This document shows positions 1 to 50,652 of a DNA stretch of 56,824 nucleotides, piece by piece. The position numbers were made by a program, and so were the translations under genes. The stretch is from a virus (Duplodnaviria > Caudoviricetes): IMG/VR virus record IMGVR_UViG_3300023172_000035, positions 1 to 56,824 of that record. One strand, given 5' to 3'. The notes beneath the pieces are model-generated. The model ran no database searches. It was given only the letters and a program-made list of their open reading frames with translations, and was not told the DNA's origin. The first letter of the stretch is position 1. Each line of letters starts with the position of its first letter.

Positions 1-120
1 ACAGCCCTCAACCATAACACTACTTCTAGCAAAAGTTCCGTTGGGGTACATAAGTAGTGGAGTTCTTTTCATTAACTTAGTTCTTCTTCTGTTGGTTGTG
101 TTTCAGTTGGGTGATTCCAT
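1..120. repeat. Terminal overlap, copy 1 (identical to 56610-56729)
   Basis: 120 nt match base for base; indicates a circular or circularly permuted assembly. Confidence 0.95.
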
Positions 121-242
121 TGTGCTATGTATGGACCTTGACCATTGCTATCATCTTGTAAAACTATTGTGCCTGTATCAGGCATAAAGTCATCTATCGT
201 TAAATTTGGTCTTAATTCTAATATCTTTTCTACTAATGTCAT
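72..242 (-). CDS. XkdW-like small tail-fibre-associated protein, copy 1 (56 aa, not in ORF track)
   Basis: Hand translation MTLVEKILELRPNLTIDDFMPDTGTIVLQDDSNGQGPYIAQWNHPTETQPTEEELS; TAATG coupling at both ends; paralog of 778-939; D..G.YIA.WN...PTEEEL pattern as in XkdW. Confidence 0.75.
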   Translation of the reverse strand: MTLVEKILELRPNLTIDDFMPDTGTIVLQDDSNGQGPYIAQWNHPTETQPTEEELS

Positions 243-778
243 TATGTTGCACTCACTAAAAAACCTTGAAATGTAACAGTAGCACTTCCAAATACTGCTG
301 TATTGGTAGCTACTCCATAATTATGATATGACCAAAACTCAACATAATCAGATGAGCCATTTAAGTGTAACAATGCACTAGTTTGTGTTGATGATTGAGA
401 GGCAGATGAGCTTCCTTCAAAACCTGTATCATTTGAACTATTCTTATAGATTCTTGCTACTAGCACTTTACCATCACTTGTTCCTGTATATCTAACCATT
501 CCTTTAATATAATAATATCCTGCTACATTGGGAGTAAACCTAGAAACTGATGTGTCATAACAACTTGCTGTATCAAACACTTCTGTATCAAATGATATTT
601 TAGTAAATACGTTACTTGTTACTGATTGAGCAGATGATTGATATGCTCTAAATGCAGGTCCAACAATTCCAACTGTACCTGTAGTTGAAGGTAAAGTAAG
701 AGTATTAGTTCCTGCTACAGCAGGTGCTGAGATTGTGATCTCACCACTCGTATCACCTGTTAATTTTATACTTGCCAT
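242..778 (-). CDS. Tail-tip protein with C1q/TNF-like jelly-roll domain
   Basis: PAFRAY...ISFDTEVFDT...YD....RFTPNVAGYYYI...F.GFLV is the C1q signature; lies in the tail-fibre cluster. Confidence 0.75.
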   Translation of the reverse strand: MASIKLTGDTSGEITISAPAVAGTNTLTLPSTTGTVGIVGPAFRAYQSSAQSVTSNVFTKISFDTEVFDTASCYDTSVSRFTPNVAGYYYIKGMVRYTGTSDGKVLVARIYKNSSNDTGFEGSSSASQSSTQTSALLHLNGSSDYVEFWSYHNYGVATNTAVFGSATVTFQGFLVSAT

Positions 779-939
779 TATGCTAATTCCTCATCTGTAG
801 GTCTTGATTCTGTTGGGTGATTCCATTGTGCTATGTAATCTCCACGACCATCTGAATCATTTTGTACAATTATGTTATCCATAAAATCTGCATCTGTTAT
901 ATTTGGTCTTAATGATTTAATTTTTTCTACTAGTGTCAT
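778..939 (-). CDS. XkdW-like small protein, copy 2 (probable start 939, 53 aa)
   Basis: MTLVEKIKSLRPNITDADF...DSDGRGDYIAQWNHPTESRPTDEELA; ATG overlaps the upstream stop (TAATG). Confidence 0.75.
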   Translation of the reverse strand: MTLVEKIKSLRPNITDADFMDNIIVQNDSDGRGDYIAQWNHPTESRPTDEELA

Positions 940-1382
940 TATGCTTTCCTTATAAAGTGTGCTTGAAACCAATTATCATCTTCTGTTACTTCAAAAGATG
1001 TGCCTGATGTGTAACCATAACACTCAAAATAATCATCTGCATCAGCATAAACTAAAACATTTAATCTTGGATATTTCATTCCCTCTACAATACTTCTTCT
1101 ATAAACTGCTCCATTTTTATAAAGAGCAACAGCATTAGTTGTTGAAGATGAACCTCTATTGCCCATACTAAACATATAGTATCCTGCTACTGTAGGTGTA
1201 AATCTATAATTTGTAGCATTGTCATATTTAGAATCTGTATCCCACATTTCTGTTGCACAAGCCATTTTTGTCCAAGTAGTAGCTGAAACAGATTGGTTAG
1301 ATGAAATTCTTGCACTAAAAGATGGTGCTGATATTAATAAATCTGTATTATCATTTTTTGTACCATGTAAAATGATTGCCAT
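939..1382 (-). CDS. Tail-tip protein with C1q-like domain
   Basis: PSFSA...WDTDSKYDNATNYRFTPTVAGYYMF...WFQAHFI; paralog of 242-778. Confidence 0.75.
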   Translation of the reverse strand: MAIILHGTKNDNTDLLISAPSFSARISSNQSVSATTWTKMACATEMWDTDSKYDNATNYRFTPTVAGYYMFSMGNRGSSSTTNAVALYKNGAVYRRSIVEGMKYPRLNVLVYADADDYFECYGYTSGTSFEVTEDDNWFQAHFIRKA

Positions 1383-2215
1383 TAATTATTCTCCAATGCT
1401 GTAATTCTTTCTTCTAATTCTTGTATTGTTTTGACTAGTAAAGGTACAAGTTTACTTTGGTCTATTCCTTGATAGATTGCATCACCATTATCATCAACTG
1501 CATCTTTTGTTCCTGTTACTGCTACAGGTACAACATCTGAAACTTCATGTGCAAGAAATCCCTCTACTGTTTCTGATTCACCTATGAAATTAAACTTACA
1601 AGGTTTTAATCTTTTAACTTCTGTTGTTGCATCAAATGTATAATTGACATTTTCTTTTAGTCTGTAATCTGATGACGTATTAAAGTTTGTTACAGATGCT
1701 GTCCAACGAATACTGCCGACCTCACTACCAGCTACATTAAAAAAAGGAATACCCCAACCACCATTAGAAACTCCATTTTGAAATGATGCAACATGTTCAC
1801 TACCATTTCTGCTTTTTACCTGAAATGCACCACCTGATGAACTTATATTGCTTGTTGTTGCTACTAGCAAATCACCATCAGAATCTATTCTCATACGTTC
1901 TGTGCCACCAGTATATGCTATCCATGTGTCATCAAATAATTGCATACTTCTGACATTGTTTGGTCTTATATCAATAGAATGGTCTGTGTTTGTTTGTATG
2001 TTAAAATCTGAATTCCCTGCTGATATTTGCCCTGTTACTGTATTTGTTGTGTCAGTAAAAGTTATTGATGGAGTGTCAGGGTGTTCTAATGTTAAATTAC
2101 CACTACTATCCATGTGTACTTTAGTTGTACCATTAGTTTGTAGGTCTATTTCACCACTTGTATCTGATACAAACTTTAATCCATCACTTGTATCTGCATT
2201 AATTTTAACTGTCAT
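1382..2215 (-). CDS. Tail fibre subunit with C-terminal intramolecular chaperone (peptidase S74); probable start MTVKINAD at 2215
   Basis: TSSDYRLKENV cleavage motif, GFLAHEV, IDQSKLVPLLVKTIQEL coiled coil; ERMRIDSDG fibre repeats. Confidence 0.85.
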   Translation of the reverse strand: MTVKINADTSDGLKFVSDTSGEIDLQTNGTTKVHMDSSGNLTLEHPDTPSITFTDTTNTVTGQISAGNSDFNIQTNTDHSIDIRPNNVRSMQLFDDTWIAYTGGTERMRIDSDGDLLVATTSNISSSGGAFQVKSRNGSEHVASFQNGVSNGGWGIPFFNVAGSEVGSIRWTASVTNFNTSSDYRLKENVNYTFDATTEVKRLKPCKFNFIGESETVEGFLAHEVSDVVPVAVTGTKDAVDDNGDAIYQGIDQSKLVPLLVKTIQELEERITALENN

Positions 2216-2691
2216 AGTATAACTAGCCTCTCTCCTGATGGGATCGTTACTGTAACCCCTGAATTGATTGTAAGTGGTCCAACACACATTGCTGATTTAC
2301 CAGTTGATAAAGTATAACTTGTTGTAACTGTCCTTGAGTTTTCATTAAAAACTTTGTCTGTACCACCGCCAGTAGCACCGCCCCCCATTTCTGATATATC
2401 TTCAAATAACTTAGCTACAGGTCTTAATTCAAATCTGTCCCCAGTAGAAAACGCCCTAGCTGATGTATTATCTTGTGCTCTGACTACAGTTAAAGAGTCG
2501 GTTGACCTAGCTGTAACTTTAACAATTTCAAGATTGTTTGAAGTATCTATAAGAGTCCCATAAAAATAATCATCAGTGCTTAAGGTAGGAAATCTAGATC
2601 CTTCACCTGAAGCTAGAGTAATAGTTGTAGCAGAATCTGTAATACCTGCTGATAATGTGCTAAATCCGTTATTTGTAACTTTAACTGTCAT
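2212..2691 (-). CDS. Short tail-fibre anchor/adaptor protein
   Basis: N-terminal ~95 aa are paralogous to those of 5693-6679 (NNLEIVKVTARS, ARAFSTGDR.ELR); C-terminal GGGATGGG..VF.EN...GPLTINSGVTVTIPSG. Confidence 0.7.
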   Translation of the reverse strand: MTVKVTNNGFSTLSAGITDSATTITLASGEGSRFPTLSTDDYFYGTLIDTSNNLEIVKVTARSTDSLTVVRAQDNTSARAFSTGDRFELRPVAKLFEDISEMGGGATGGGTDKVFNENSRTVTTSYTLSTGKSAMCVGPLTINSGVTVTIPSGERLVIL

Positions 2692-2700
2692 ATGCGTATT

Positions 2701-3453
2701 CTACCTGTTTAAAAACAATTTCTCTATAAAAAAAGCAGGTGGATCTAACTCCCACCATTTGTGTCCATGTCTGTAATCTTTCGATATTGTATGATGATAA
2801 TTGTGCCAACCCTCACCCCAAGATAATAGACTAGCTAATATACTATTGTAAGACTTATCATCACCTCTTGGCTCTACTACTTGATATCCACCAAACTTTT
2901 TAGAGTGTGGTATGACTGCAAATGCACCTGCTGCTTGATAAGCACAGGCTGCAGGAAAACTAAATGCAAATATACCCAACATTGGGTTTATCAAATAAAG
3001 TACAAAAGCATAACCTAATAACATCTTCCAATAGTGTTTAGTAATAAACATATAATCTTTATCTTTGAGTATGTCTTTGACCATTGTTTTAGGTACAGTT
3101 ATTGGATCATATAGGGTAAGCCATGCTCTAACATAACCAATATTGTGAGGTGCTTCATTATCTTTAATACCACCACTATATCTATGATGATATCTGTGCA
3201 TAGCTGTCCATGATAATGGGCTACCAAATCCGCATGGTATTGATAAATATTTTAATAATTTTGTTTTAAATGGTGTAGTTTCAAATGACCTATGAGATAC
3301 AAATCTGTGCATTGCAATATTAACGCTAAATATCATAACAAAAAACCATGCAGCAACTCCATAAATAATATATTCAGGAAACATTATTGAACCTGTAATA
3401 GCTATTATGGTATTAAGTAACGCTAATAACTGTATCTTTCTTGCTTCTTTCAT
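2701..3453 (-). CDS. Membrane fatty acid desaturase, Delta9 (DesC/OLE1)-type
   Basis: Three His boxes HRFVSH, HRYHH, GEGWHNYHH; hydrophobic segments; C-terminal WWELDP. Confidence 0.92.
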   Translation of the reverse strand: MKEARKIQLLALLNTIIAITGSIMFPEYIIYGVAAWFFVMIFSVNIAMHRFVSHRSFETTPFKTKLLKYLSIPCGFGSPLSWTAMHRYHHRYSGGIKDNEAPHNIGYVRAWLTLYDPITVPKTMVKDILKDKDYMFITKHYWKMLLGYAFVLYLINPMLGIFAFSFPAACAYQAAGAFAVIPHSKKFGGYQVVEPRGDDKSYNSILASLLSWGEGWHNYHHTISKDYRHGHKWWELDPPAFFIEKLFLNR

Positions 3454-4159
3454 TAGTCCATCCTAGCAAAGTTATAATAGAAACCCAAATATCAAACTTG
3501 TAATATCTTAATTCTGGTTTGATATGATGGTTCTTGTGGTGTGTTTCATTAAATATTAAAGGGTAAAGTATAGGTCTATTCTTGATTCCATCTTCTTGAT
3601 GACACATTACATTGATACCATAGTTAGTAATAGCATTGGTCATAGCACTAGGCAGTAACCACAAATATAAATACATCTCTAAACCTAGTAACGACAACAA
3701 TATCAAGTTAATAGATAAAGCATAAAGTCCTATATGTTTAGTTACATGAGCTACAAACTTATTTCTAAATAAATCTATACATCTTTTAGGTTCAGCATAA
3801 TGGTAATAACTCATAAATATCATATAAGGTACTGAACAATACTTAGGACTATGAGGGTCTTTTTTTGTATCTGCATAGTGATGATGAGTTCTATGCCAAG
3901 CACTCCATGTTATTGGTGTGCCTGTAAGACTACCTACAGAAAACATTGTTAGCACATTTTGTAACCATACAGGTGGATTCCACAATTTGTGAGCCGCATA
4001 TCTGTGTAAGAATAATCCATGTATGCAATCACCTAAAAACCAAAACATAATGTAGGATATTAATAGTTGTTCCCATGTTAAAACGTACAAGCAATAAGGA
4101 ACACTTGCTAGAAAAATCCAATATATTGAAGTTAAAATTCCCACTAATACTCCCAACAA
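3413..4159 (-). CDS. Membrane fatty acid desaturase, divergent second copy
   Basis: His boxes HRYAAH, HRTHH (followed by ADTKKDPHSP), HKNHH; TM segments. Confidence 0.9.
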   Translation of the reverse strand: MLGVLVGILTSIYWIFLASVPYCLYVLTWEQLLISYIMFWFLGDCIHGLFLHRYAAHKLWNPPVWLQNVLTMFSVGSLTGTPITWSAWHRTHHHYADTKKDPHSPKYCSVPYMIFMSYYHYAEPKRCIDLFRNKFVAHVTKHIGLYALSINLILLSLLGLEMYLYLWLLPSAMTNAITNYGINVMCHQEDGIKNRPILYPLIFNETHHKNHHIKPELRYYKFDIWVSIITLLGWTNERSKKDTVISVT

Positions 4160-4647
4160 TGTCTAACATTGTTAGGGGAATCATCATTTATTTCTCTTGT
4201 ATATGTGCCTAAACACACACCATCGGTTTGTAATCTTTGAAAATATGTATCTACTCTACTGTCTTTAACACAAGTAATTATATATTTAGATACACCTATA
4301 GATTCCTGATATGTTCTATGTGCTGTGTGCCATTCTGCACTATGAAATACTGCTTTACTCCCGTTTACTGTACCATTTAAAACCCATGCCCAAACAAAAG
4401 TATCTAATGGATTATGATTACCTACTATCCAATTAATAGGGTTTCCGTCTTTCTTAACTAAAATACCGTGCCTACTTACTGCCTCATAGTTAAACTGTTC
4501 TTTAGTCCATTCTTTTATTTGGTCATCAGTACTTAATGTACTAGGATACAATAATGTACCTGATTTAATATCATCTAATGATGTTTGGAATAAACTATCA
4601 AACAGTGTGTCATCTATTGTATCTGCTCTTTCAAATGTTATTGCCAT
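4144..4647 (-). CDS. Hypothetical protein, possibly GNAT-like fold
   Basis: ORF with SD GAGGT; alpha/beta pattern (ILVKKDGNPINWIVG...SIGVSKYIITC...YFQRL) suggests GNAT, weakly. Confidence 0.5.
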   Translation of the reverse strand: MAITFERADTIDDTLFDSLFQTSLDDIKSGTLLYPSTLSTDDQIKEWTKEQFNYEAVSRHGILVKKDGNPINWIVGNHNPLDTFVWAWVLNGTVNGSKAVFHSAEWHTAHRTYQESIGVSKYIITCVKDSRVDTYFQRLQTDGVCLGTYTREINDDSPNNVRHCWEY

Positions 4648-4656
4648 AAACCTACC

Positions 4657-5709
4657 TCAAACTATTTTTAATGTGTATGTTGCACTAGTGCTATTTAAAA
4701 AATTATATAAAACATTATTAGCCTCGTCTAAAAGGTAAGAACTATTCCCTGCTGAGATTGTCCTATAAGTATCTGCCCCACTTGGTTCAAAATCTGATGT
4801 TCCTAAACTACTTATTCTGTAAACATACGTTTTATTATCATTATTTCTTGACAGCACAAAAAATCTCATTCTGTCTTTCAAACCATTAGCATCACTACCT
4901 GTTACCTCTATTTTCCCACTATAACCACCACCAACTTCTTGGGCTGTAGCATTTGTTCCATGTACAGATATTACTGTAGTATATTGAGAATTGTTTTCAG
5001 GATTTCTAACTGAATTTGTACCTGAAGTTACAGAACCTCTATTACCAAAACTATTCAGGACGCTACTATTTAAGTTAAACCCCCTGTGATATAAAGTCTC
5101 CCCTTTACCAGTTGTAGATGTCCAGTTACTGACTTGAAATGTCATAGTACAAAATGGGTCATCATCTGCAAATTTTACTATCTCAACATCATAAGTTGAA
5201 TTGAGATTCATTATAGGAAAAGATCCTGTAATATTTTTGTCAGTACCTGATGTACTAAAATCAATCTCACCATATCTTCTTCTTTTAGTTGTACTTCCAA
5301 GTTTTACAGTATCAATATCCATTCTATCACCTGTAACTCTAAAAGTAGTTGGTTGAGTTCCTGTGGTTATTATAGTATCACTAATAGGAGCTTGATATGC
5401 CCTGTTCAACCCTATTGTATTTGTGCTTAAACTAAAACTACCAATGTTAGAATTTGAGTTAGGTGTGTTTTCATGTCTACCATAAAAATATTTAGAAGCT
5501 TTATCTAATACTCTACCAGCAGTTACAGTACCGTCTGCTAAATAAGTAATGTTTGATGTACCATAAAAGTTGGCAGCCATTTGTATCTGTCCACTTGCAG
5601 CTGCATTACCTTTACCATATAGAGATGACATAGCTATTTGACCCGAGCCTAAACCAAACTCATTCCTAATATCACTAAGTTTTATTTGACCACTACTTAC
5701 TAAAGGCAC
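4657..5709 (-). CDS. Putative tail-fibre tip adhesin/receptor-binding protein
   Basis: N-terminus MPL.SSGQIKLSDIRNEFG...IAMSSLYGK is typical of proteins encoded directly after S74 fibres; Gly/Ser/Thr/Asn-rich beta body. Confidence 0.6.
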   Translation of the reverse strand: MPLVSSGQIKLSDIRNEFGLGSGQIAMSSLYGKGNAAASGQIQMAANFYGTSNITYLADGTVTAGRVLDKASKYFYGRHENTPNSNSNIGSFSLSTNTIGLNRAYQAPISDTIITTGTQPTTFRVTGDRMDIDTVKLGSTTKRRRYGEIDFSTSGTDKNITGSFPIMNLNSTYDVEIVKFADDDPFCTMTFQVSNWTSTTGKGETLYHRGFNLNSSVLNSFGNRGSVTSGTNSVRNPENNSQYTTVISVHGTNATAQEVGGGYSGKIEVTGSDANGLKDRMRFFVLSRNNDNKTYVYRISSLGTSDFEPSGADTYRTISAGNSSYLLDEANNVLYNFLNSTSATYTLKIV

Positions 5710-6679
5710 TTTTTAACTCCTTAATTTCCTCTTTGAGTTCCTTAATACAGTTAATTAAAAGACCATGTATAGCGTCATACTCTACTGTTTTATATTTCTT
5801 ACCATCTACAAGTTTAAGTTCTTTTTCTCTAACAGCTTCAGGTAAAACTTTTTCTAATTCTTGTGCAATGATTCCAGCAGACTTTTGTCCATTGTGTCTT
5901 GTAAATGTAACACCTCTGACTTCATCTATTTTATCTAATGCGTTAGGTATTAACTCTATATCAGACTTTAATGCAACATCTGATATTGTAGTTGAGAAAG
6001 CAATAACATCTCCATCTACATGTAAGTCGCCATCTGATTCTAGTCTCATGTCTTCAGCGTCATTTGTTTTGAATCTCATGCTATTGTCAGAGTGATAGTA
6101 AGCTATTTGTCCTACATCTGGGTCATTTGTATCTTTAAAGTTTATATAACTTACACCTGTGTTTGCTGCTGATATATTCATTCCAGCATCTCCACCTGTG
6201 TTTTCTACTTCTAATAAATTAGCAGGACTTGCAGTTCCTATACCTACTCTGTTGTTTGTAGAATCTACTTTTAATGTAGATGTATCAATAGTCAAATCAC
6301 CACTACAAGATATAGCACCTGTACCCGTAATATTATTTGAGTTTAAATCTAAATCAGCCGCTAATGATGTAAGGGTAGTAGCAGCATCGAGTAGAGATTG
6401 TGCTGTAATCCTAAGTTCTATTCTGTCGCCAGTAGAAAAAGCTCTAGCTGTCGTACTTTCTTGTGCACGAGTAACAGTTAATACATTACCGGATCTAGCC
6501 GTAACTTTTACAATTTCTAAATTATTTGATGCATCTATAAGAGTTGCTCTAAAATATTCACTGCCTGTTAAGGATGGAAATTTTGATCCACCACCAGATA
6601 CAACAGTTATACTTGTATCAGAATTTGTAATGCCAGACGCTAATGTAGATATAGCATTATTAGTAAACTTTATTGTCAT
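5693..6679 (-). CDS. Tail fibre with C-terminal S74 chaperone
   Basis: NNRVGIGTASP repeat; ISDVALKSDI, GIIAQELEKVLPEAV, LLINCIKEL. Confidence 0.88.
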   Translation of the reverse strand: MTIKFTNNAISTLASGITNSDTSITVVSGGGSKFPSLTGSEYFRATLIDASNNLEIVKVTARSGNVLTVTRAQESTTARAFSTGDRIELRITAQSLLDAATTLTSLAADLDLNSNNITGTGAISCSGDLTIDTSTLKVDSTNNRVGIGTASPANLLEVENTGGDAGMNISAANTGVSYINFKDTNDPDVGQIAYYHSDNSMRFKTNDAEDMRLESDGDLHVDGDVIAFSTTISDVALKSDIELIPNALDKIDEVRGVTFTRHNGQKSAGIIAQELEKVLPEAVREKELKLVDGKKYKTVEYDAIHGLLINCIKELKEEIKELKSAFSK

Positions 6680-6695
6680 TTAAAGCCCCTTTGTT

Positions 6696-7136
6696 TTAGC
6701 TTACAGTCACAGTCCATGTAATCCCTAATGTATCAGCCGCACCTTTGTTTATCACAGAAAATACAGTTCTACACAATAGAGTACCACCTGAACTTGCATT
6801 TAATAATCCAGCTTCCGTAATAGCACCTGTACCTGTACCAGCACCAAATGATGCTACGTAGGCAACAGAGTTTGTAGTTACAGTAGTAGAAGTAAGAGCA
6901 ACACGCCCTGCCTCACTACCTAGTGCAGTATCGCCAGCTGCAGCCGCAGTTGAATCTGTACCAATAGCCATGTGTGACATAGCAGCATCTGTAGTATCTT
7001 TTAATCTAGACGCAATTAAGTTTTTACCTGTGGTAACAACTAAATTAGGTACTACAACTTCTTGCTTTACGTTTCCTTCTGGATTAGTAACAGTAATTTT
7101 AAGTTCGCCTGTTACTTTAATTAAATCATTAATCAT
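6696..7136 (-). CDS. Conserved tail/collar structural protein
   Basis: NLVVTTGKNLIA...MAIGT...DTALGSE...ITEAGLLNASSGGTLL pattern common in phage tail modules. Confidence 0.65.
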   Translation of the reverse strand: MINDLIKVTGELKITVTNPEGNVKQEVVVPNLVVTTGKNLIASRLKDTTDAAMSHMAIGTDSTAAAAGDTALGSEAGRVALTSTTVTTNSVAYVASFGAGTGTGAITEAGLLNASSGGTLLCRTVFSVINKGAADTLGITWTVTVS

Positions 7137-7148
7137 TCATCCGTCTCC

Positions 7149-8210
7149 TTAAGTATTAGCTCCAGCTGAAAGTGGAGTAGCATTACATACATGTCCACCC
7201 AACGAACTATCATCAACATCAGTATAATGGAATGTGACAACAAGTCCAGCGTTGGATGAATCGCCTTCTGTTATTTTATCATCGTTAACTATGATTTGCC
7301 CTACATAACCAGGTCCACCAATGATACCTGTATTAGGCTCATCTCTAGTAAATATAAACCCGACTGTACCATCAGATATGTTAACAAGTTCTGGATACAT
7401 AGGTGTTGTAACCCCAAGAGTAAGTGTTGTACTTATGCTCTCAGACGCAGAAACACTGTCTGTAGATACTAAATCTACAGTTATAGAATTTACAGCATCC
7501 GATGGTATAACACTATCAGCCTTAACTATACTTGGTTGTAAAATTGAAGATTCAGACATAGTTACTGAATCAGACCTACTAGTCGTAAACTCTTTAGCAT
7601 CAGACTCAGATGCAGATACTGAATCAGTAGGGACAGTATTTATAGTTTTTGCATCAGACTCAGACACAGATACTGAATCAGTAGGGACAGTATTTATAGT
7701 TTTTATATTAGATTCAGATGCCGTTACGCTGTCAGATTGTGGTATATCTGGCTGTAATGCTGGTGAATCAGAGGCTGATACTGAATCTGTTTTACCTGCA
7801 GGTGTTATTGTTTTAGCATCAGAATCGGTAACATTTATAGGGTCTGGATCAACATCATCATCACTTGGGTCAAAATCTACTGAAGAATTTATTATCTTAT
7901 TTGGTGTATCAGTTATTGTTACTGAATCAGACTTAACTAGCTGAGCATCAAATACTGGGTCGCTATCTGAAGATGTAACAGAATCTCCAGGAATCAAACT
8001 AATTTCAAGAACTGGGGAGTCAGTTATAGATACTGAATCAAATTTCTTACGTGTTGGTACTAATTCAAAAGCTTTTATACCTAGCCTAGAAGTATTTACT
8101 GTAGCTGATATCTTATTACCATCACTAACTACAGAACTAACACTATTAACACTAACGCTAAATGATATAGCCGTTGCGGCAATAGCGGATACAAGTCTTA
8201 TATTAGCCAT
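7149..8210 (-). CDS. Acidic Ser/Asp-rich repeat structural protein
   Basis: Many DSV(S/T)xS(D/E)S repeats; in the tail operon. Confidence 0.65.
   Translation of the reverse strand: MANIRLVSAIAATAISFSVSVNSVSSVVSDGNKISATVNTSRLGIKAFELVPTRKKFDSVSITDSPVLEISLIPGDSVTSSDSDPVFDAQLVKSDSVTITDTPNKIINSSVDFDPSDDDVDPDPINVTDSDAKTITPAGKTDSVSASDSPALQPDIPQSDSVTASESNIKTINTVPTDSVSVSESDAKTINTVPTDSVSASESDAKEFTTSRSDSVTMSESSILQPSIVKADSVIPSDAVNSITVDLVSTDSVSASESISTTLTLGVTTPMYPELVNISDGTVGFIFTRDEPNTGIIGGPGYVGQIIVNDDKITEGDSSNAGLVVTFHYTDVDDSSLGGHVCNATPLSAGANT
7597..7704. repeat. 54-bp tandem duplication (KTINTVPTDSVSxSESDA x2)
   Basis: 7597-7650 and 7651-7704 are nearly identical. Confidence 0.9.
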
Positions 8211-8542
8211 TAGAAGTTACTTCTTACTCTAAACTTTAGTAGGTCATATACAGTGTGTAAATTACCATTGAAGTTAACTACTATTTCACCTTCATATGAG
8301 CCTTCATCAACATCTAATTCACCACTAGTAAAATTAAATTGTACTTTACCATCAGAACCATCATTAGTTTTTGCACAGCTAATCGTTGATAATACTGATG
8401 TCCCACCTACAGCTCTAAACTTTACTGATACTGAAGTAGTAGCCGCTGATAAGTCTAATGCAGTATTAGCCACATCATCGTTTAATGTCAATTGTATGAG
8501 TGGTAACTCATCTCCTTTTACTAATTTAATTACATCTGCCAT
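8210..8542 (-). CDS. BppU N-terminal-like tail attachment protein
   Basis: KGDELP.I.L.L...ALDLS...DGKVQFNF...G.YEGEI pattern. Confidence 0.55.
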   Translation of the reverse strand: MADVIKLVKGDELPLIQLTLNDDVANTALDLSAATTSVSVKFRAVGGTSVLSTISCAKTNDGSDGKVQFNFTSGELDVDEGSYEGEIVVNFNGNLHTVYDLLKFRVRSNF

Positions 8543-8548
8543 AGTCTA

Positions 8549-9205
8549 CTACCCAAATGGTTGTCCTTGAACTCTCATGGATGCTCTTCCAGCACCAAGA
8601 TTAGCTCTAGCTCTACGCTCCGATAATTTAAATGCAAACTGTTTTGCATGATATGAAGCTAATTCTCTATCACTCCAGCTATTATCTGGTAATACCAACA
8701 AATGCTGTAGTGCTCCATGCATGATAACATTTTCTAATTCATCTAAAACTGTTTTATCCATACTTGTTGCTGATCTCAATGGTTTTAAACATACAATCAT
8801 TCTTATATCATAAGTCTCAGCACTATCTGGTACTGGTGCTACTGAGAAATGATCGGGGTCTAACTGAGCTATATATCTAGGTTTTGCCCTATTATCAGTA
8901 GGTTGATTAGGCCATTTAGGATATAACTCATATAACTTATCTAAAGTTACTGGCTCTAATATTTCATCATTTACTGTAGCTGTAATAAATGCATGTACTT
9001 CAGCATCTGATGGAGACTCATATGCATAATCGTGAGCTCCCACAGTCAAACGTATTCTTGGTTGTTCATACCGCCACGCTAGAGTACGTTCACATGCTTC
9101 TATCGCAGCATCCCGAACATAATTCTCTACAACAGGTGTCGGACATCCTGGAACACTTGGTAGTAATCTATTTACTATATCTGAAAAATTTCTTGTTCCT
9201 GCCAT
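8549..9205 (-). CDS. Head-tail adaptor/tail tubular protein
   Basis: VPGCP...VRDAAIEACERT.AW; position after the capsid genes. Confidence 0.6.
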   Translation of the reverse strand: MAGTRNFSDIVNRLLPSVPGCPTPVVENYVRDAAIEACERTLAWRYEQPRIRLTVGAHDYAYESPSDAEVHAFITATVNDEILEPVTLDKLYELYPKWPNQPTDNRAKPRYIAQLDPDHFSVAPVPDSAETYDIRMIVCLKPLRSATSMDKTVLDELENVIMHGALQHLLVLPDNSWSDRELASYHAKQFAFKLSERRARANLGAGRASMRVQGQPFG

Positions 9206-9870
9206 TATGTGAGGTCCTCCTCAATCTTTTGCTTGTTTACTGGCTGTAAACCTGCAGTTTCTGTATCTGTAAATATTCTATTAGAAGCAGAAACTCCTAA
9301 TGCTTGTGTAAATGATTTCAAAAATAATTCTGCTCTACCTGAATTGACATGCTCGTTATCAATAGACTCAGCTAGATATACTGTCCCATCTACAACAGCT
9401 GGTAGAAAAGCATCTGGTAGTAAAGCTACTGTAGTTGTCCCATCATAAGTAGGAGGAGATTGAGAGTACTCTACTTTTAATACCTGAGAAGCTGGAGCTT
9501 TTGGGTATATAAAAAATTTGTTTGGGTTTCTAGCATGCCTCATAAAATTTCTACATGCACCTGCTGCATCGTTAATCCATTGTGGATACGATTGATCTAA
9601 AATTTCTCTATTTGTTTCTGTTACTCCATTACCACCTACAACAGAAAATACTTCTATAAGTCTTATAGAATCACTAGGGGCAGATTGTAATACCTCATTT
9701 TCAGTACATGTAACTGTACCCATATATGCAAATAAGTCTGGCCTCAATACTGAAATACGTTTAAGAGCTTGGTTTGCAAACCCTAAAAGTACTGTATCAG
9801 AATACCTTTGAGGAGTATTTTCATCCTGTATTAGCCTTCTAACTTCAGTAATGACATCATTTAAAATCAT
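9205..9870 (-). CDS. Head-tail adaptor protein
   Basis: VRRLIQD...RYSD..LL.FANQA...RPDL; FFIYP; position. Confidence 0.6.
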   Translation of the reverse strand: MILNDVITEVRRLIQDENTPQRYSDTVLLGFANQALKRISVLRPDLFAYMGTVTCTENEVLQSAPSDSIRLIEVFSVVGGNGVTETNREILDQSYPQWINDAAGACRNFMRHARNPNKFFIYPKAPASQVLKVEYSQSPPTYDGTTTVALLPDAFLPAVVDGTVYLAESIDNEHVNSGRAELFLKSFTQALGVSASNRIFTDTETAGLQPVNKQKIEEDLT

Positions 9871-19985: not shown

Positions 19986-20999
19986 ATGAAAGCTAATGAG
20001 CTGATAACTACTATCAAGGCATTGTTTCCACTTAAGAGGACACTTTGTGTTGAGGGTAGCCCCGGTGGTGGTAAGACTACCATTGTCAGAGATGTGGCTA
20101 AAGAGTTAGGTGTTGGTTACATTGAGTTACACCTACCGACCATGTTGGTAGAAGACTTCGGTGTGCTATATCCTAAAGCTGACAGCAACAAGTTGGAGTA
20201 CAAGCTACCTGAGTGGTTTCCATCAGAAGATAGGACTGACATACCTGATGAGGGTATTCTATGTTTTGATGACAGAAACCAAGCTAGTGCTGATATTCAA
20301 AAGGTCTTAGCAAACGTATGCCAAGCTAGAACATTGCATGGTGCAAAGCTTAAAGATGGTTGGCATGTGATATCTACAGGTAATAGACAAAAGGATAGAG
20401 CTGGTGCTAACAGGGTGCTATCTCATCTACGTAATCGTGAGACTGTAGTTGAGCTTGAGACTAACCTAGATGAATGGGTTAAGTGGGCATTGATGAATGA
20501 TGTTAAGCAATCTGTTGTGTCGTTCTTGCAGTTCAGACCAAATCTATTGCATGATTTTGATCCTCAGAGGGAACAGAATCCATCACCTCGTTCATGGGTA
20601 GAGGGTGTATCTGACATCATTGGTGTTATACCAAATGATATTGCTGAACAACAAGCAATCATGGGTGCAGTTGGTGAGGGTGCTGGTGCTGAGTTTATCA
20701 GTTTCCTAAACATTCAGTCTAACCTACCTAGCCCTGACAGAGTGTTTGAGAATCCTCAGACAGCACCAATACCTGAGGAAACTAGTCATCTATATGCATA
20801 CTGTGGTGCAATTGCTTACCAAGCTGACAAGAATATTGACAACCTTATCAAGTACTGTCGAAGACTATCTAGCGACACAGTAGGTAAGGCTGAGTTCTCT
20901 ATCTTGACAGTCAAGTTAGCAGTTAACAAGTTCGGTACTAAGCTACAAGGTCAAGAGTTTTCCAAGTGGTGTGTCGAGAACGCTCAGTATCTAAACTAA
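19986..20999 (+). CDS. MoxR-like AAA+ ATPase
   Basis: Walker A GSPGGGKT, Walker B ILCFDD, sensor STGNR, arginine finger LRNR, PSPRSW. Confidence 0.88.
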   Translation: MKANELITTIKALFPLKRTLCVEGSPGGGKTTIVRDVAKELGVGYIELHLPTMLVEDFGVLYPKADSNKLEYKLPEWFPSEDRTDIPDEGILCFDDRNQASADIQKVLANVCQARTLHGAKLKDGWHVISTGNRQKDRAGANRVLSHLRNRETVVELETNLDEWVKWALMNDVKQSVVSFLQFRPNLLHDFDPQREQNPSPRSWVEGVSDIIGVIPNDIAEQQAIMGAVGEGAGAEFISFLNIQSNLPSPDRVFENPQTAPIPEETSHLYAYCGAIAYQADKNIDNLIKYCRRLSSDTVGKAEFSILTVKLAVNKFGTKLQGQEFSKWCVENAQYLN

Positions 21000-21469
21000 T
21001 GGGTTATCGTAGTGAAGTGTTATGTGCTGTAGGGTTTCCCACTAGGGATAAACTTGTAGAGTACATGACACTACATAGACTGAAAAGCTATCCACATGAT
21101 ACTAGACATTTACTAGATGAGTTCATTAGTAAGGCTAAGATTATTGAGGGTGATGGTCATGCTGTTGCATTTCACCAATATGAAAGCATCAAGTGGTATG
21201 AAAACTATGAAGATGTACAGATTATATCGCAGTTCATAACAGGTGTATGTGAACATGATAACCAAGCTGTAGGTAAGATAGCAAGGGTAGGTGAGGAACA
21301 AGGCGATATTGAAAATGATACATATGACCAAATACCAAGTGGTGGTAATCATGATGTGTATGAGGCTTTGGATAATCTATTTTACCCTGTGTCGTATGTG
21401 TGTATAGACATACCAGAGGGTGAGTTACAACAATTAAAAACTATAGGAGAGTTACATGAAACTAAGTGA
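20999..21469 (+). CDS. Hypothetical protein (probable start MGYRSEV)
   Basis: TAATG coupling to the ATPase; KWYENYEDV...RVGEE..DIE pattern seen in phage early genes. Confidence 0.7.
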   Translation: MGYRSEVLCAVGFPTRDKLVEYMTLHRLKSYPHDTRHLLDEFISKAKIIEGDGHAVAFHQYESIKWYENYEDVQIISQFITGVCEHDNQAVGKIARVGEEQGDIENDTYDQIPSGGNHDVYEALDNLFYPVSYVCIDIPEGELQQLKTIGELHETK

Positions 21470-22307
21470 TAAGGCATTGCTAGTACAACTTAATGTATCA
21501 CAGTGGACAGCTCGTAAGCTAGACAAGAAAGCTACAGACCTTGTAGCCCAAGCTAGTAATACAGGCAACCACGCTGGTAGGTACAACAAGTCATTACTAC
21601 CAATGAATGAATACCTAGACAATGTGCATAAGAAAACCACATTGATTAGGAAAGAGTATTATCACAATACACTACCTTGGGGTATTGATGGGACAATGAT
21701 ACTACCAACTGATAACTATCTAGACTTCATGGCGAAGTTCAGACAGTACAAATCAGAATGGGAAATGCTAGTAGATAATTTTCTAGTAGCGTATCCACAG
21801 TTGCAGTTGAATGCACAAAGATATCTAGGTGATTTATATAACCCCAATGACTATCCAAGTGCAGATGTATTGAGGCGTAAGTTCAGTATGGACATGACTG
21901 TTCTACCTGTACCATCTAATGACTTTAGAGTTGGTATTGATGAGCAAGAACTTGCTGACATACAGCAACAAGTTGAGGCAAGAGTTCAGCAGTCTACCAA
22001 AGTTGCTATGCAAGAGGCATGGCAAAGATTATACGACAAGGTAAAGAGTATGGCTGAGAGATTGTCGGATACTAAAGCAGTCTTTAGAGATACGTTAGTA
22101 ACCAATATACAAGATGTATGTGATGTATTGAAAAGACTAAACGTAACAGGTGATGAAGACCTAGAGAACATGAGGCTCATGGTTGAAGGCACCTTAGCAA
22201 ACAACAACCCTGAAAGTCTAAGACTAGACCTTGACTTGAGAAAGAAAAAGTCTAGTGAGGCTAAGGATATATTAGACAGAATGGGTGCATTTATGGGACA
22301 ACAATAA
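21456..22307 (+). CDS. DUF3150-like helical protein
   Basis: WTARKLDK, TLPW, LGDLYNPNDYPS; typical neighbour of phage MoxR/VWA pairs. Confidence 0.55.
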   Translation: MKLSDKALLVQLNVSQWTARKLDKKATDLVAQASNTGNHAGRYNKSLLPMNEYLDNVHKKTTLIRKEYYHNTLPWGIDGTMILPTDNYLDFMAKFRQYKSEWEMLVDNFLVAYPQLQLNAQRYLGDLYNPNDYPSADVLRRKFSMDMTVLPVPSNDFRVGIDEQELADIQQQVEARVQQSTKVAMQEAWQRLYDKVKSMAERLSDTKAVFRDTLVTNIQDVCDVLKRLNVTGDEDLENMRLMVEGTLANNNPESLRLDLDLRKKKSSEAKDILDRMGAFMGQQ

Positions 22308-23461
22308 TGATTGATGAAATAACACAGAAACGACTAGAGAAGAAACTTAAGAAAGCTAAGGCTCAGTTGATACTAGACTATCCATTCATTGGTAACATTG
22401 CGTTCACCCTTGAAACTGTATGGGATACTAGCATACCAACAGCTTGTACTGATGGCGAAATGATTAAGTTTAATCCTCAGTTTGTAGATGACATGAGTGA
22501 TGATGAGTTTAAGTTCTTACTTGCTCATGAATGTATGCACCCTATGTTAGAACATTGCTTTCGTAGGGGTAATAAAGATCCATATAAATGGAATCAAGCA
22601 GGTGATTATGTCATTAACCAAATACTGATTGATGATAGTGTAGGTAAAATGCCTAGCTGTGGTGGTCTGTATGACAGAAGACTACATGCTGAGGGTGGTG
22701 GTACTACTGAGGGTATATACAACCTACTACCTGAGACACCTGAAGATGAACAAGGTATGGGTGGTGAGGGTAAGCCACTAGATAATTGTATGGACAGTAG
22801 TGGTACTGAATCAGACAGAAATAGACAACAAGCTAAGTGGAAAGTTAGAGTGGCTCAGTCAGCACAATCAGCTAAGATGATGGGCAAGATGTCAGCCGGA
22901 CTTGAACGACTAGTAGATGACATGCTTAAACCTAGAGTGGATTGGCGTGATGTCTTACACAGATTTGTTGTCAAGGCTAGGACTGATGATAGAACATTCT
23001 CTAGAGCTAACAGAAGATTCTTACCACAAGGATTGTACTTACCGAGTGTATCAGGTGAGGCTATGGGTGAGCTAGTGTTTGCAGTGGATTGCTCAGGCTC
23101 TATCAGTCAAGATGAGATAAACCAATTCGCTAGTGAGATTACTACTGTATGGCAAGACCAATGCCCAACAAGTATTCATGTGATATATTTTGATAGTGAG
23201 GTATGTCACTATGACAAGTTCGAGAGAGGAAATGATGAGCCTGTTATCAAGCCACATGGTGGTGGTGGTACAGCATTCAGCCCTGTCTTTAACTTCATGA
23301 GTAAGAATGGTATCGAGCCTGTTGCTTGTATATTTCTTACTGACCTCTACTGTAGTGACTTTGGCACAGAGCCACAATGTCCTGTGCTATGGGTATCTAC
23401 TGAGAGGAATAATACGAGTGTGCCTTTTGGTGAGGTAGTCAAAATGCATGATGAAAAATAA
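22307..23461 (+). CDS. Zincin metallopeptidase + VWA protein (DUF2201-like)
   Basis: PTACTDG, HECMH (HExxH), MIDAS DCSGS, GGGGT, FLTD. Confidence 0.88.
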   Translation: MIDEITQKRLEKKLKKAKAQLILDYPFIGNIAFTLETVWDTSIPTACTDGEMIKFNPQFVDDMSDDEFKFLLAHECMHPMLEHCFRRGNKDPYKWNQAGDYVINQILIDDSVGKMPSCGGLYDRRLHAEGGGTTEGIYNLLPETPEDEQGMGGEGKPLDNCMDSSGTESDRNRQQAKWKVRVAQSAQSAKMMGKMSAGLERLVDDMLKPRVDWRDVLHRFVVKARTDDRTFSRANRRFLPQGLYLPSVSGEAMGELVFAVDCSGSISQDEINQFASEITTVWQDQCPTSIHVIYFDSEVCHYDKFERGNDEPVIKPHGGGGTAFSPVFNFMSKNGIEPVACIFLTDLYCSDFGTEPQCPVLWVSTERNNTSVPFGEVVKMHDEK

Positions 23462-37869: not shown

Positions 37870-38147
37870 AAAGGGTTAGGATAGAAAACACAAAAGAAAT
37901 CAAAGAGAAATACCCTATAGTTATCATAGATTGGGAAGATCATACTGCTGACTCTGGGTGGGTAGATGATGTAGATGTTATTGAGCCAGCATATTGTCGT
38001 AGTATAGGGTGGCTTATCAAAGAAACTAAATCAGAATATAAAGTAGCCGACTGTGTTACTGCTGATTCAGGTCAAGGTGGTATTCAATGTATCTTAAAAA
38101 GAACAGTATTAGATATGTGGTATGTTGATATGCTAGATGAGGACTAG
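37866..38147 (+). CDS. Conserved phage hypothetical protein
   Basis: I.WED....SGW...C.SIGWLIKE pattern; ATGA coupling. Confidence 0.7.
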   Translation: MKRVRIENTKEIKEKYPIVIIDWEDHTADSGWVDDVDVIEPAYCRSIGWLIKETKSEYKVADCVTADSGQGGIQCILKRTVLDMWYVDMLDED

Positions 38148-41100
38148 TAATCATTAATTACACTTTCATATGCGTCTAATAAAAACTCTGTTTCAGGTCT
38201 AATATTTTTAGGAGCAAACTTTTTATATCTTTCAACAGCAGGCATTGACCAAGCTTTGTGTGCTCTTCGTGCTGAAGGTAGCCAATTTTTAAACTCAAAT
38301 TCAGTACCTCTAAACTCTCTATTGTGTTCTTTAACTTCTTTTTCAATATACCTCATAGTTTTTTTATCTTTATTTATCTTAGCTTTCACCCAAGCATCTG
38401 TATAAGATTTCTTAATTGATTTAACATAGCCATCTGTTTGTTTACTCATTCTTATAATATCATTCTGATATGTAGCACCAGCTGGGTAGAAGTTTAAAAA
38501 CCTAAATATAGTTTGCATGGTAGAGGCTTCTTTCATTAGCACCTTACCTTCTTTATTTGTAACAGCACCATCGTTAAGGTAAGTAAACCCATCTGATATA
38601 CCTCTAAGTGCACCGAATGGTTGATTCTTTAATACATCAGCCCAAGAAGTTGTTTCATCTTTAAGACCTATAAATTCTGCACCTTGTTGTGACAACAAAC
38701 TCATAGTTGCTACTGACTGTTCAAATGCTGAGAACACAGGACCAAAGAAGTTTTTAGTTTCTTGCCAGTTATCTGATCCTGCTTTACCGGCACCAGTTAG
38801 TGGTATTAAATCACCGAAGCCTAATCTAGTAGACATGGTAGCTCCAAGATAGTAATCTAAAACACCTCTCATAACTATTGGTGATAGCCCTGGTGCAAGT
38901 TCATTTAAGAAATCATTAAGTTGTTTTTCTATAGTAGCTTGTTTAAAACCAAACTTCTGCATTAGCGTATCTGCTAAATCTGATGCATCATCGGCAAAAG
39001 GTAAACCTTTTAGTCCTGACATTAAAACAATTAAACCTATCATATAAGCTTGTTCTTTTACATTTAATTGTCTCATGAGTTCTACAGTAATAACTACAAA
39101 CTGTTTATACATCATGATAAGACCAAGTATAGGTCCTCTAGCCATAGCTGGTCTGTTAAACATTCCATATTCACCTTGAGATGTGTTAACAGCTTTTAAT
39201 GCAAATTCTTCTGCGGCCTTTTGTATTTCATTTTGTTTTAAATCACCAGCTCGTTGTAGCTTATCTCTTTGTAATCTGTATGCTGCTAAGAAAGTTGTTC
39301 TTCTGTTTAATTGTTCTGTAATAGAGAATGTTTTCATCCAAAGTCTAACGAAGCCAGCTAAATTTTTTCTAGCCATTAGTCCACCTCTAGCTGTACCAAC
39401 TAAAGCGTTAAACTGTGCAGCTTGAAGTACACCTTGTTCAGTAGCATCAAGTAGTACTTGAGCTTCATCTTGTGATAAACCATATTTTTCTTGTAGTGCT
39501 TTACCTTCTGGAGTTTTCGCAGCTACTTCTCGAACATGAGATAGTTGCTCTAGTTTTAAATTTTTTACATTGCGAAGTGCTTTTAGTATAGCTGCATTTG
39601 AGTTCATTAAACCAAACCCACCACCATATCCAGTCTTAGGATTATATGTAGCTAGGAAAGGAACACTATGGGTAGCCATTGATATCATATTTATCATACC
39701 TGTAGCTACAGATCCACCAAGTTGTGAAGTTACTGTTAGTAATTTAAAACCAGAACCTACTTCACCCGCTAAAAAGTCTTCTGTAGATACATCTATTTTT
39801 CCAGCTTGGCCATAGTAATCTACTAACCCTGAAGCAACATCTCTATAACTTCTACCTTCTCCTTCAGTTTTAACCTGTACTGCTTCTCTGTTCCTACCAC
39901 TACCTTTATATACAGTAATAGTTTCGCCTGTTACATCACCAGCTGAATATCTATACATATTTGCATAAGAATCGTACTGTTGTTGAGCAATTTTTATTTG
40001 GTCATCGTTACCTGTACGCTCAACGTTTTCCATTTTTTCTTTTAGTCTGTTTAGTTTGTTCTTATCACCCATCCACAGTTTATTATCTGTTGTATATCTG
40101 TTTAATTTATGTGAATAAAACACTTTACCAGCCGAATGAGACATGGTTTCTAGATGTTCTGATACACTTCTTATTACATCTGTATCCCAACCTCCTGTAC
40201 CTGAACGTTGTAAACTTCTTCTTGCTCTATCAGATTGTTTAGTTAAAGCAGTAGTTACCTTCTTCATTTGCTCTGTTTTTAAATTTATATTTAGTCTAAC
40301 TAAGATACTGGTGAACTCATCTAAATTCATAGAACTTGCAAGTGGAGCAGACTCACCGACTCTACTAGTTTCTGGTCTTAGATTTACTTCAACATCTTGT
40401 AAGTTTTTATCTTTAAATTTATATTTAGTATCACTGAAGTCTTCTATTAATCCCTGTGCAAGATCTCGTGCATCTTTTTTAGAGCCAACTTGGTAGTATG
40501 GCAATACACTTTTAGTGTGGTCATCAAGTTCTATTTCATTACCGTTATCATCAAATGCTCTAAGTGTTACTTGATATTCACCACGTCTAGTAAATGGTAC
40601 ATATGCACCCATGATAGTACGTTTAGCATTGAACTCATTGTTTACATTTTTTAAATCTAATATTAATAAATTTTCTATGATTTTAGTTAGTTTTTTTGCA
40701 TCTGTTGAATTTCCTGAATATATTTGGTGAAGTTGTTGTAGACTATTTACAACATCAGTAAATCCTTCACTACCTCTTTCTAATATAGGAACTTCATTAG
40801 TATCACCACTAACCCAGTCATTAAGTTTTTTTGGTTCCCATAAAGCACGGTTAACATCTCGTAAAAAACGTTCTGCTGCTTTTTGTGATTCAGGGGCATA
40901 CCTTATACCCACACCATCTAACGTTGAGTTTTCAGAATATATTTCTATATACTTATCTAGTATTGCTTTAGCTGCAGCTTCATCTTGTACAGTAGATCCG
41001 ATGCCTCGTTTGTTTTCTGCAACATCTCTTACTAGTTTTAGTATGTCTTGTTTTTCTACTTCAATAGCTTCTAAGTTAGACTCTAATAAATCTTTGGCTG

Positions 41101-50304: not shown

Positions 50305-50652
50305 TTATCCTTTTATCTGTTTTATTAAAGCATTTAGTACAGCTCTTGTATATGCTAAATCATTTGCTAGTGTTTGTACATCTGTAACTAACTTTACATA
50401 GTCTTCAAGTGCTACTACTTCTTGTCCACTTATTGTGAATCCATTACCTTTTGCTGTAACTTGACGCATATCCTGTGTTGACATTTGCTCTACACCAATA
50501 TCGCCTCTAAGTACTGCTCTACTTGATGAATCTTCTTCACCTCTAAGGCCAGCTAAAAGCTCAACATTCTGTTTTACTGCCGATACTAAAATAGATGTAG
50601 TATCAGAAAGTTCTTGTTCTGGTATTCCTGGAACTGATACAAACCTAGCCAT
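50305..50652 (-). CDS. Small tail-associated protein
   Basis: Coupled to the nozzle gene; C-terminal coiled coil. Confidence 0.65.
   Translation of the reverse strand: MARFVSVPGIPEQELSDTTSILVSAVKQNVELLAGLRGEEDSSSRAVLRGDIGVEQMSTQDMRQVTAKGNGFTISGQEVVALEDYVKLVTDVQTLANDLAYTRAVLNALIKQIKG

Follow-up and report, generated by a model that had tools for sequence, protein, structure and literature searches.

A conserved tandem of deeply diverged desaturase genes in the tail fibre block of a podophage-like genome, and its probable role as a mobile lipid-modifying module

What would a phage gain from two membrane fatty acid desaturase genes placed in tandem among its tail fibre genes? The question is raised by the IMG/VR record IMGVR_UViG_3300023172_000035 (Caudoviricetes), a full record of 56,824 bases that is estimated to be complete; this whole stretch of DNA is termed the window below. 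Two genes, here called DesA and DesB, overlap on its minus strand:

2701..3453, minus strand: DesA, a 250-residue SCD1-like membrane fatty acid desaturase with an ATG start, a match to PF00487, four predicted transmembrane segments and nine metal-ligand histidines
3413..4144, minus strand: DesB, a 243-residue divergent SCD1-like desaturase with a likely GTG start (the listed open reading frame (ORF), 3413-4159, has 248 residues from a TTG)

The initial annotation had described two overlapping, mutually divergent desaturase genes, co-oriented between two fibre systems, and our analysis bears this out, as both proteins match PF00487, possess all the histidine boxes and share 27% identity (over 93 residues, E = 4e-10). 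We consider it probable that DesA and DesB are functional, anciently diverged di-iron desaturases that constitute a mobile auxiliary module, acting on the acyl chains of the host membrane with complementary specificities.

The matches to the FA_desaturase family PF00487 (54.4 bits, E = 2e-14 for DesA; 47.1 bits, E = 3.4e-12 for DesB) lie above its gathering cut-off of 29.7 bits, and a scan of the genome for desaturases recovered exactly these two proteins. Both contain the motifs HX4H, HX2HH and HX2HH in this order, plus an extra histidine ahead of the third box; the ligands are H49/H54, H86/H89/H90, H183 and H217/H220/H221 in DesA, and H52/H57, H89/H92/H93, H187 and H208/H211/H212 in DesB. 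All are invariant in alignments of homologues (22 homologues for DesA), except H57 of DesB, which is nearly invariant. A histidine-box pattern of this type marks the Delta9 or first-desaturase class. Among solved structures SCD1 (4zyo/4ymk) was the only match of DesA at E <= 0.01 (2e-10 with the single sequence and 5e-23 with a profile that aligned to SCD1 across positions 11-245), and the DesB profile likewise found SCD1 first (E = 2.6e-8), with the alkane monooxygenase AlkB far weaker (2.3e-4). The AlphaFold2 model of DesB (pLDDT 89.3) recovered from the PDB, at E <= 1e-3, solely four chains of three SCD1 entries (4zyo, 4ymk, 6wf2; TMq 0.67). Thus, SCD1 is the best relative by both sequence and fold, with the nine histidine ligands and the four-helix membrane core in common, although DesB is just 15-16% identical to it in the Foldseek alignment and SCD1 exceeds the phage proteins in length by about 70-90 residues. 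The sole NCBIfam match, DesA_fam_desat, scored 42.6 and 25 bits, far under its cut-off of 400, and hence no equivalog assignment follows. On this sequence evidence DesA and DesB are SCD1/DesC-type membrane desaturases, and the earlier term "Delta9-type" is apt for both as the label of a histidine-box class of which SCD1 is the best solved member, not as a statement of regiospecificity.

The gene extent first given for DesA (2701-3453) stands, whereas the DesB start originally placed at the TTG at 4159 should be moved: the GTG at 4144, yielding 243 residues, is most likely the true start, because it overlaps the stop codon of the upstream gene o4144 as TAGTG and because a homologue (P0106), 97% identical to DesB, is likewise 243 residues long. 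The 41-nucleotide overlap between DesB and DesA is a local peculiarity of the window and its closest relatives, which have a longer DesB C-terminal tail; in most relatives DesB ends with ...GWT or GWA at, or a few bases from, the DesA start.

To survey the pair in other viruses we compared the ORFs predicted in the 80 best DesA loci with profiles built for DesA, DesB and o4144. In 69 of 69 loci (L003-L071) the ORF immediately upstream of DesA is of the DesB type (in seven the contig end truncates it), and a second desaturase of any kind occupies this position in 77 of the 78 evaluable loci (L080 and L081 were not evaluable for pairing). A different paralogue takes the upstream place in L072-L079, and L082 has a solo DesA-like gene. 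Three or four distinct desaturases are present in 23 of the 80 loci. A complementary survey from the DesB side added, among its new contigs, a solo DesB-like gene (L171) and a divergently oriented pair (L166) as exceptions, as well as triple and quadruple arrays (L172, L205, L185 and L186) on contigs of 20 to 113 kb. Across the window and the 80 related viral loci, the three histidine boxes are kept in every one of 182 full-length desaturase ORFs. The median pairwise ratio of nonsynonymous to synonymous substitution rates (dN/dS) is 0.131 for DesA (652 pairs) and 0.159 for DesB (835 pairs), falling to 0.07-0.11 against the closest relatives. The complete retention of the boxes and these low ratios imply that the desaturase pattern is not due to chance, and the substitution patterns indicate that both genes are maintained by purifying selection.

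Beyond these loci, cultured-phage records with a match number only three, at about 28% identity, namely Pelagibacter phage Mosig and two records of Acinetobacter phage MD-2021a. In metagenomes we recovered 105 clusters for DesA and 43 for DesB; all DesA matches of at least 37% identity are proteins of 137-275 residues on contigs of at most 56.5 kb, and a DesB profile search returned 6221 representatives at E <= 1e-3, just 59 of them at E <= 1e-30. IMG/VR contigs encoding a relative number 510 for DesA and at least 571 for DesB. Species genomes were scanned for cellular homologues with two narrow peptide patterns, and the closest genes among the matches listed (the best 80 of 585; 24-34% identity) belong to Pseudobdellovibrionaceae, Planctomycetota and Bradyrhizobium-like organisms, with no cyanobacterial sequence in these best 80 of the pattern-based scan. 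Among 401 sampled alphaproteobacterial genomes, 37 have a DesA match (one being the unpublished G041), the best at 36% identity. This best match (L253; G258:C1:1463264-1463911), encoded by a 1.7-Mb genome, scored 143.6 bits against 83 or fewer for the others, and the genome G258 could represent the cellular lineage closest to the phage desaturase clade.

In a tree of 60 rows, 27 of them cellular, the cellular sequences form one group (SH-aLRT support 88), and the DesA and DesB clades are separate from each other (SH-aLRT 100 each); four further deep viral paralogue groups bring the viral total to six. The initial annotation had raised near-identity to a host housekeeping desaturase as a point to be checked; the cellular matches of 24-36%, the best among those listed, are far from it, and the sequence comparisons indicate that DesA and DesB are not copies of such a host gene. 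The DesA and DesB of T4-type phages are each nested within the podophage-type clades, which implies that DesB-DesA moved jointly between phage types.

The placement of the pair had been read as a possible functional tie to the fibres or the virion. In the direction of transcription, the minus-strand order is S74 fibre 1, o4657, o4144, DesB, DesA, fibre 2 and C1q-domain proteins, and the packing is tight, the fibre 2 gene beginning 9 nucleotides past the DesA stop. The genes around the pair are the following:

5693..6679, minus strand: tail fibre 1, with a C-terminal S74 intramolecular-chaperone domain (PF13884, 48.9 bits) and matches to many PHROG tail-fibre families
4657..5709, minus strand: o4657, a 350-residue fibre- or receptor-binding-like protein with a conserved N-terminus of about 70 residues and a variable remainder
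4144..4647, minus strand: o4144, a 167-residue GNAT-fold protein (AlphaFold2 model and Foldseek), translationally coupled to DesB
2212..2691, minus strand: N-terminal protein of tail fibre 2 (phrog_8469, E = 1.4e-34), residues 1-98/99 of which are paralogous to the N-terminus of fibre 1
1382..2287, minus strand: distal part of tail fibre 2, with an S74 chaperone domain (PF13884, 26.5 bits) and matches to PHROG tail-fibre families

An N-terminal domain of about 100 residues is homologous between the two fibres, and the fibre N-termini of relatives match both at about 60-95% identity. The gene for the distal part of fibre 2 probably has its true start at an internal ATG (about 2215) directly adjoining the stop of the N-terminal gene, and a match to the distal protein in L015 begins at its residue 25. 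We considered a programmed frameshift between the two fibre 2 genes and rejected it, as the internal ATG abutting the stop accounts for their overlap.

The distribution of the pair speaks against a functional tie to these fibres. Among the 62 DesB-DesA loci with sufficient upstream DNA, 14 have neither o4144 nor any fibre homologue; all 14 share T4-type flanks, in which the array is preceded by a small ORF and a UvsW-like helicase, the latter at 68.8% identity to the Pelagibacter phage Mosig protein, and is followed by gp55-, gp47- and gp46-like genes. DesA in these loci has about 75% identity to its counterpart in the window. In T4-type loci (within L033-L053) three or four different desaturases stand in a row between the UvsW-like helicase and the gp55-like sigma factor (e.g. 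L034, 5306-8214). We also examined 80 close capsid relatives of the window phage (81-99% identity) out of at least 597. In the 16 that span both fibre paralogs, a search across each locus found neither a desaturase nor an o4144-like gene; the only window-like loci among the capsid relatives (L256, L257 and L297) stop short of the desaturases. The interval between the fibre paralogs varies among close relatives in length (1.1 to about 4 kb) and in content, the cassette being present in some and absent from others. Its absence from fibre-bearing capsid relatives marks the cassette as an accessory insert between the fibre paralogs, and this absence, together with the position of the pair away from fibres in T4-type phages, implies that its fibre-proximal location reflects lineage history and not function. 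The comparative sequence evidence thus identifies DesB-DesA as a mobile accessory cassette. In the L075-L079 lineage a different desaturase pair is flanked upstream by the gene for an Mtd_N-domain protein and downstream by that for an Asp/Arg hydroxylase (L075, 3700-8046); that receptor-binding loci repeatedly host desaturases is the pattern expected if such loci are recombination-prone accessory slots.

We therefore favour the following course of events as the probable one. DesA and DesB would be made in the infected cell and inserted into the host cytoplasmic membrane, where they would draw electrons from host carriers for an oxygen-dependent di-iron chemistry and introduce cis double bonds into the acyl chains of pre-existing host membrane lipids. 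Unsaturation could thereby be quickly raised or diversified with no need for new fatty acid synthesis. The two paralogues most likely differ in chain length, sn-position, head group or double-bond position, and would be complementary and not redundant, since both are kept together. The cassette would be located between the fibre paralogs because this interval is a recombination-prone accessory slot, and not because its enzymes act on the virion. With respect to the electron donor, a 2Fe-2S ferredoxin of the Fer2 family was not found in the window (the control was positive in 12 of 14 genomes), which is consistent with host electron donors, and a Pfam scan of 20 window proteins recovered no cytochrome b5, ferredoxin or reductase.

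The inferred substrate, complementarity and benefit to the phage draw on two analogies. Cyanobacterial DesC1/DesC2 and Pseudomonas DesA/DesB are paired cellular Delta9 desaturases that split the work by sn-position or substrate class; they model the complementary reading, though, unlike the phage genes, they are not adjacent mobile cassettes. The other analogy is with the cyanophage enzymes that have been assayed (PMC5776448).

Several points weigh against this reading. Desaturase activity, substrate and regiospecificity are predictions from sequence, and the host is suggested by the low G+C content (0.33-0.41) and by the desaturase pool held in common with Mosig-like contigs. The invariable pairing could equally fit an obligate complex or a sequential pathway. 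The coupled GNAT-fold gene, never seen without DesB in the 38 evaluable loci, hints at a dedicated acyl substrate over bulk lipid, and the Asp/Arg hydroxylase (13 of 130 flanking ORFs), radical SAM (13) and QueC-like (4) genes near related arrays suit a tailoring pathway. The narrow-pattern genome scan, moreover, may have missed closer cellular relatives.

An alternative that we regard as unlikely is that the two proteins form an obligate two-enzyme system, either as a hetero-oligomer or by acting in sequence on one acyl chain to give a product that neither makes alone (e.g. one with two double bonds, or with one double bond plus another oxidation). It would account for the adjacency with stop/start overlap in 69 of 69 loci, for the co-transfer between podophage- and T4-type genomes, for the coexistence of two clades so deeply diverged (27% identity) and each under purifying selection, and for the expansion of arrays to three or four distinct paralogues. 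However, no result of the analysis points to contact between DesA and DesB; a complex prediction from alignments of both families, with a score of 0.00 against a mark of 0.32, is neutral regarding binding. Further, the existence of solo DesA-like and DesB-like genes (L082 and L171) runs counter to strict interdependence, and the pairing of DesA with another paralogue in L072-L079 suggests that the partner is exchangeable.

The gene upstream of DesB points in another direction. No Pfam or NCBIfam match was found for o4144; its AlphaFold2 model (pLDDT 89.4) retrieved 429 PDB matches at E <= 1e-3 with Foldseek, all 34 of those listed being GNAT-type acetyltransferases (TMq 0.42-0.59), and an Atlas look-up also gave acetyltransferase-like leads. 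Its homologues have NGSK or NNSK in the loop after strand 4, which differs from the canonical pyrophosphate-binding motif for coenzyme A (CoA). From the model we regard o4144 as a GNAT-fold protein and not as a proven acetyltransferase. Relatives found with one peptide pattern occur on 39 viral contigs, and DesB directly follows in all 38 that could be evaluated, while the desaturase pair does without o4144 in T4-type loci. Of the 48 GNAT-type loci, 41 encode an o4657 homologue, consistently upstream of the GNAT gene in this phage type, although o4657 itself has no Pfam or PHROG family and most of the matches are limited to its N-terminal 50-120 residues. Between the window and L003, o4144 is 36% identical, against 94% for DesB and 92% for DesA; relative to L008 and L019 the order is reversed, with 66-68% for o4144 and 43-44% for DesB. 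The divergence of o4144 hence tracks that of the variable o4657 and not that of the desaturases, and because these two genes vary together and far faster than the desaturases, the sequences suggest a recombination boundary exactly at the o4144/DesB junction, despite the overlapping stop and start codons. The dN/dS of o4144 (0.62) is unreliable, many pairs being near saturation. An hhalign comparison of the o4144 profile with the ORFs upstream of the L172 and L034 arrays gave no sign of a relationship (probability 0.1). We regard two roles as possible for o4144: acyl transfer in partnership with the desaturases, or service as a companion to the receptor-binding gene.

For other phages, the genes next to desaturase arrays were tallied over 130 flanking ORFs from 14 non-podophage loci of 18 listed, four near-duplicates having been dropped. 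The commonest Pfam families are Asp_Arg_Hydrox and Radical_SAM with 13 each, QueC (PP-loop) with 4 and NifU with 3. The Mosig desaturase lies in an island with genes for a hydroxylase, aminotransferases, an acetyltransferase, an FMN reductase and a peroxiredoxin. In the window itself, a scan for Asp_Arg_Hydrox gave no match, though it is uninformative as the control also matched nowhere. In three loci with three- or four-desaturase arrays (L172, 3210-6259; L185, 3192-6965; L205, 3177-6226; contigs of 20-106 kb) the array is directly followed by an ORF of 283 residues; the one in L172 encodes a PP-loop protein resembling QueC (PF06508, E = 1.1e-7), which may be an amide-forming partner.

These neighbours could indicate a dedicated lipid-tailoring or surface-remodelling pathway, in which an acyl (N-acyl) compound would be synthesised or transferred by the GNAT-fold protein, or the desaturases would target lipids of the outer membrane (e.g. 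lipid A or ornithine lipid), with a late surface change (e.g. superinfection exclusion) as the outcome. We think this improbable. It is favoured by the TAGTG coupling of the GNAT-fold gene to DesB and their unbroken succession in the evaluable loci, by the cassette always lying behind a fibre-like protein in this phage type, by the placement of the L075 pair between the Mtd_N-domain protein and the hydroxylase, by the hydroxylase, radical SAM and QueC counts given above, and by the hydroxylase, aminotransferases and acetyltransferase around the Mosig gene. Yet the DesB-DesA pair occurs without the GNAT gene in the 14 T4-type loci, the similarity of the GNAT protein follows the fibre-like gene and not the desaturases (as in L003), and the GNAT gene has neither a Pfam match nor a confirmed CoA motif.

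Enzymes of the LpxO and OlsC types act on lipid A or ornithine lipid. A further proposal, which we put forward tentatively and deem rather unlikely, is that DesB-DesA is an obligate acyl-chain editing module exchanged across podophages and myophages of streamlined, low-G+C marine bacteria, which would rewrite the envelope of the infected cell. Its paralogues would act as a complex or in sequence, sometimes along with additional desaturases, LpxO/OlsC-like hydroxylases and acyltransferase-fold proteins, to produce a lipid that the host cannot make.

A role of the enzymes in tailoring an acyl group on the fibre or the particle, which the initial annotation had raised as its second idea, is highly improbable. 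It has in its favour only the location of the genes in the late structural block, on the same strand and with no promoter- or terminator-like signal above chance: a scan of positions 1-9500 gave 26 promoter-like sites against 45.9 expected and 4 terminator-like sites against 3.7, and a terminator-like hairpin at 2756-2738, inside the end of DesA, is within chance expectation. Against it stand the nature of the proteins, which are integral membrane enzymes with a lipid-desaturase fold, the distance of the pair from fibre genes in T4-type phages, and the fact that none of the 16 same-fibre relatives carries it. Equally hard to credit is the notion of decaying or hitch-hiking duplicates without function, given ligands intact in all 182 ORFs, dN/dS values of 0.07-0.16, open frames and tight coupling. 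The annotation lesson is that lying within a fibre block is no proof of a role in the virion.

The uncultured coastal phage that carries the pair is podophage-like. The window, with a G+C content of 0.33-0.41 in 2-kb windows, encodes a portal, a large terminase, a major head protein, a family-A DNA polymerase, a primase-helicase and an internal virion protein. By sequence its cultured relatives are all distant: the portal is 35% identical to that of Rhizobium phage RHph_TM3_14A and about 25% identical to those of HMO-2011-type pelagiphages and roseophages. A tRNA scan of the window found none, and hence offers no clue to the host. Downstream of fibre 2 on the minus strand (72-242, 242-778, 778-972 and 939-1382) a module occurs in two copies, each consisting of a C1q-domain or C1q-like protein (178 residues, PF00386, 35.6 bits, and 147 residues; both PHROG 15750) and then a small paralogous protein of 56 or 64 residues with the shared pattern MTLVEKI...AQWNHPTE...EEL; these modules look like alternative receptor-binding tips with small companions. 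The early region (19986-23461, plus strand) contains an AAA/AAA_5 ATPase of 337 residues two genes upstream of a 384-residue DUF2201 metallopeptidase-like and VWA-like protein, and the genes flanking desaturase arrays of other viruses also include one for a DUF2201 protein. A Pfam search of ten early-region proteins found no lipid or redox gene, only AAA, DUF2201 and PD-(D/E)XK domains. On the minus strand a single ORF of 2693 residues (38144-46225) lies beside the internal-virion-protein gene (50652-53030).

The window stretch is present in salt-marsh and marine metagenomes and in others labelled "freshwater". Six metatranscriptome runs contain 32-58% of its sampled words, and contigs from three salt-marsh metatranscriptome libraries match it with zero mismatches at 3833-4214, 3223-3646, 2766-3104 and 2335-2734, covering parts of DesA, DesB and the GNAT gene. 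Such libraries may contain DNA, and contig depth cannot rank genes; the matches are compatible with transcription of the desaturase region.

Virus-encoded fatty acid desaturases (vFADs), including multi-copy phage-only clades, are already in print (PMC5776448, PMC7300359). Those of cyanophages (Roitman et al., ISME J 2018) are described as Delta9 C16 desaturases in ole1 yeast (PMC5776448). Like DesA and DesB, vFAD-I and vFAD-II are phage SCD/DesC-type membrane desaturases with three histidine boxes, and their genes are interpreted as auxiliary metabolic genes that alter the unsaturation of host membranes; they come from cyanomyophage contigs and group with picocyanobacterial DesC types (Delta9-3/Delta9-4) at less than 70% protein identity (PMC5776448). 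The podophage-like window genome (56.8 kb) does not correspond to the setting of vFADs in cyanomyophages, beside photosynthesis-type auxiliary genes. Compared by description, the present genes instead form a pair (elsewhere an array of as many as four) of phage-only paralogues that are deeply diverged and 227-262 residues long, in podophages and Mosig-like T4-type phages; the T4-type carriers are closest to Pelagibacter phage Mosig, unlike the vFAD cyanomyophages.

Nor are two copies as unusual as the initial annotation supposed, since Zhong et al. (mSystems 2020), in their work on Arctic cryopeg-brine and sea-ice viruses, describe two cryopeg viruses with five vFAD copies each (PMC7300359). 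The main text of that account resembles ours in several SCD1-like genes per virus, clades without microbial members, purifying selection and a membrane-fluidity model (PMC7300359). Judged from that description the habitat and the viruses are different, and the text, which comes without gene maps, reports no conserved two-paralogue unit, sharing between podophages and myophages, fibre-interval location or GNAT partner (PMC7300359). The desaturase of Mosig EXVC030M (MT647606, Mosig_00080), from one of only two cultured-phage organisms with a match, is likewise a short FA_desaturase protein of a T4-type phage, with 68.8% identity between the UvsW of this phage and the one encoded by the array contigs; unlike DesB-DesA the desaturase is a single gene, 27-29% identical and on a long tree branch. 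Desaturases in pelagimyophage-type contigs are mentioned in passing in two other papers (PMC7029224, PMC11480375). In the literature on marine phage desaturases, consulted partly as titles and abstracts and without supplements, we found neither a conserved DesB-DesA unit described nor any mention of podophages and myophages having it in common or of a GNAT partner.

Virus desaturases are among the few auxiliary genes that act directly on the host membrane, and in the literature consulted one family has been assayed (PMC5776448). The DesB-DesA pair is part of a large phage-only radiation and occurs in a common coastal and marine podophage group, with at least 597 capsid relatives, and Mosig-like phages. 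If the specificities of the two enzymes do differ, the pair would constitute a compact natural toolkit for editing lipids in situ and would help to reveal how the membranes of abundant marine bacteria are remodelled by their phages.

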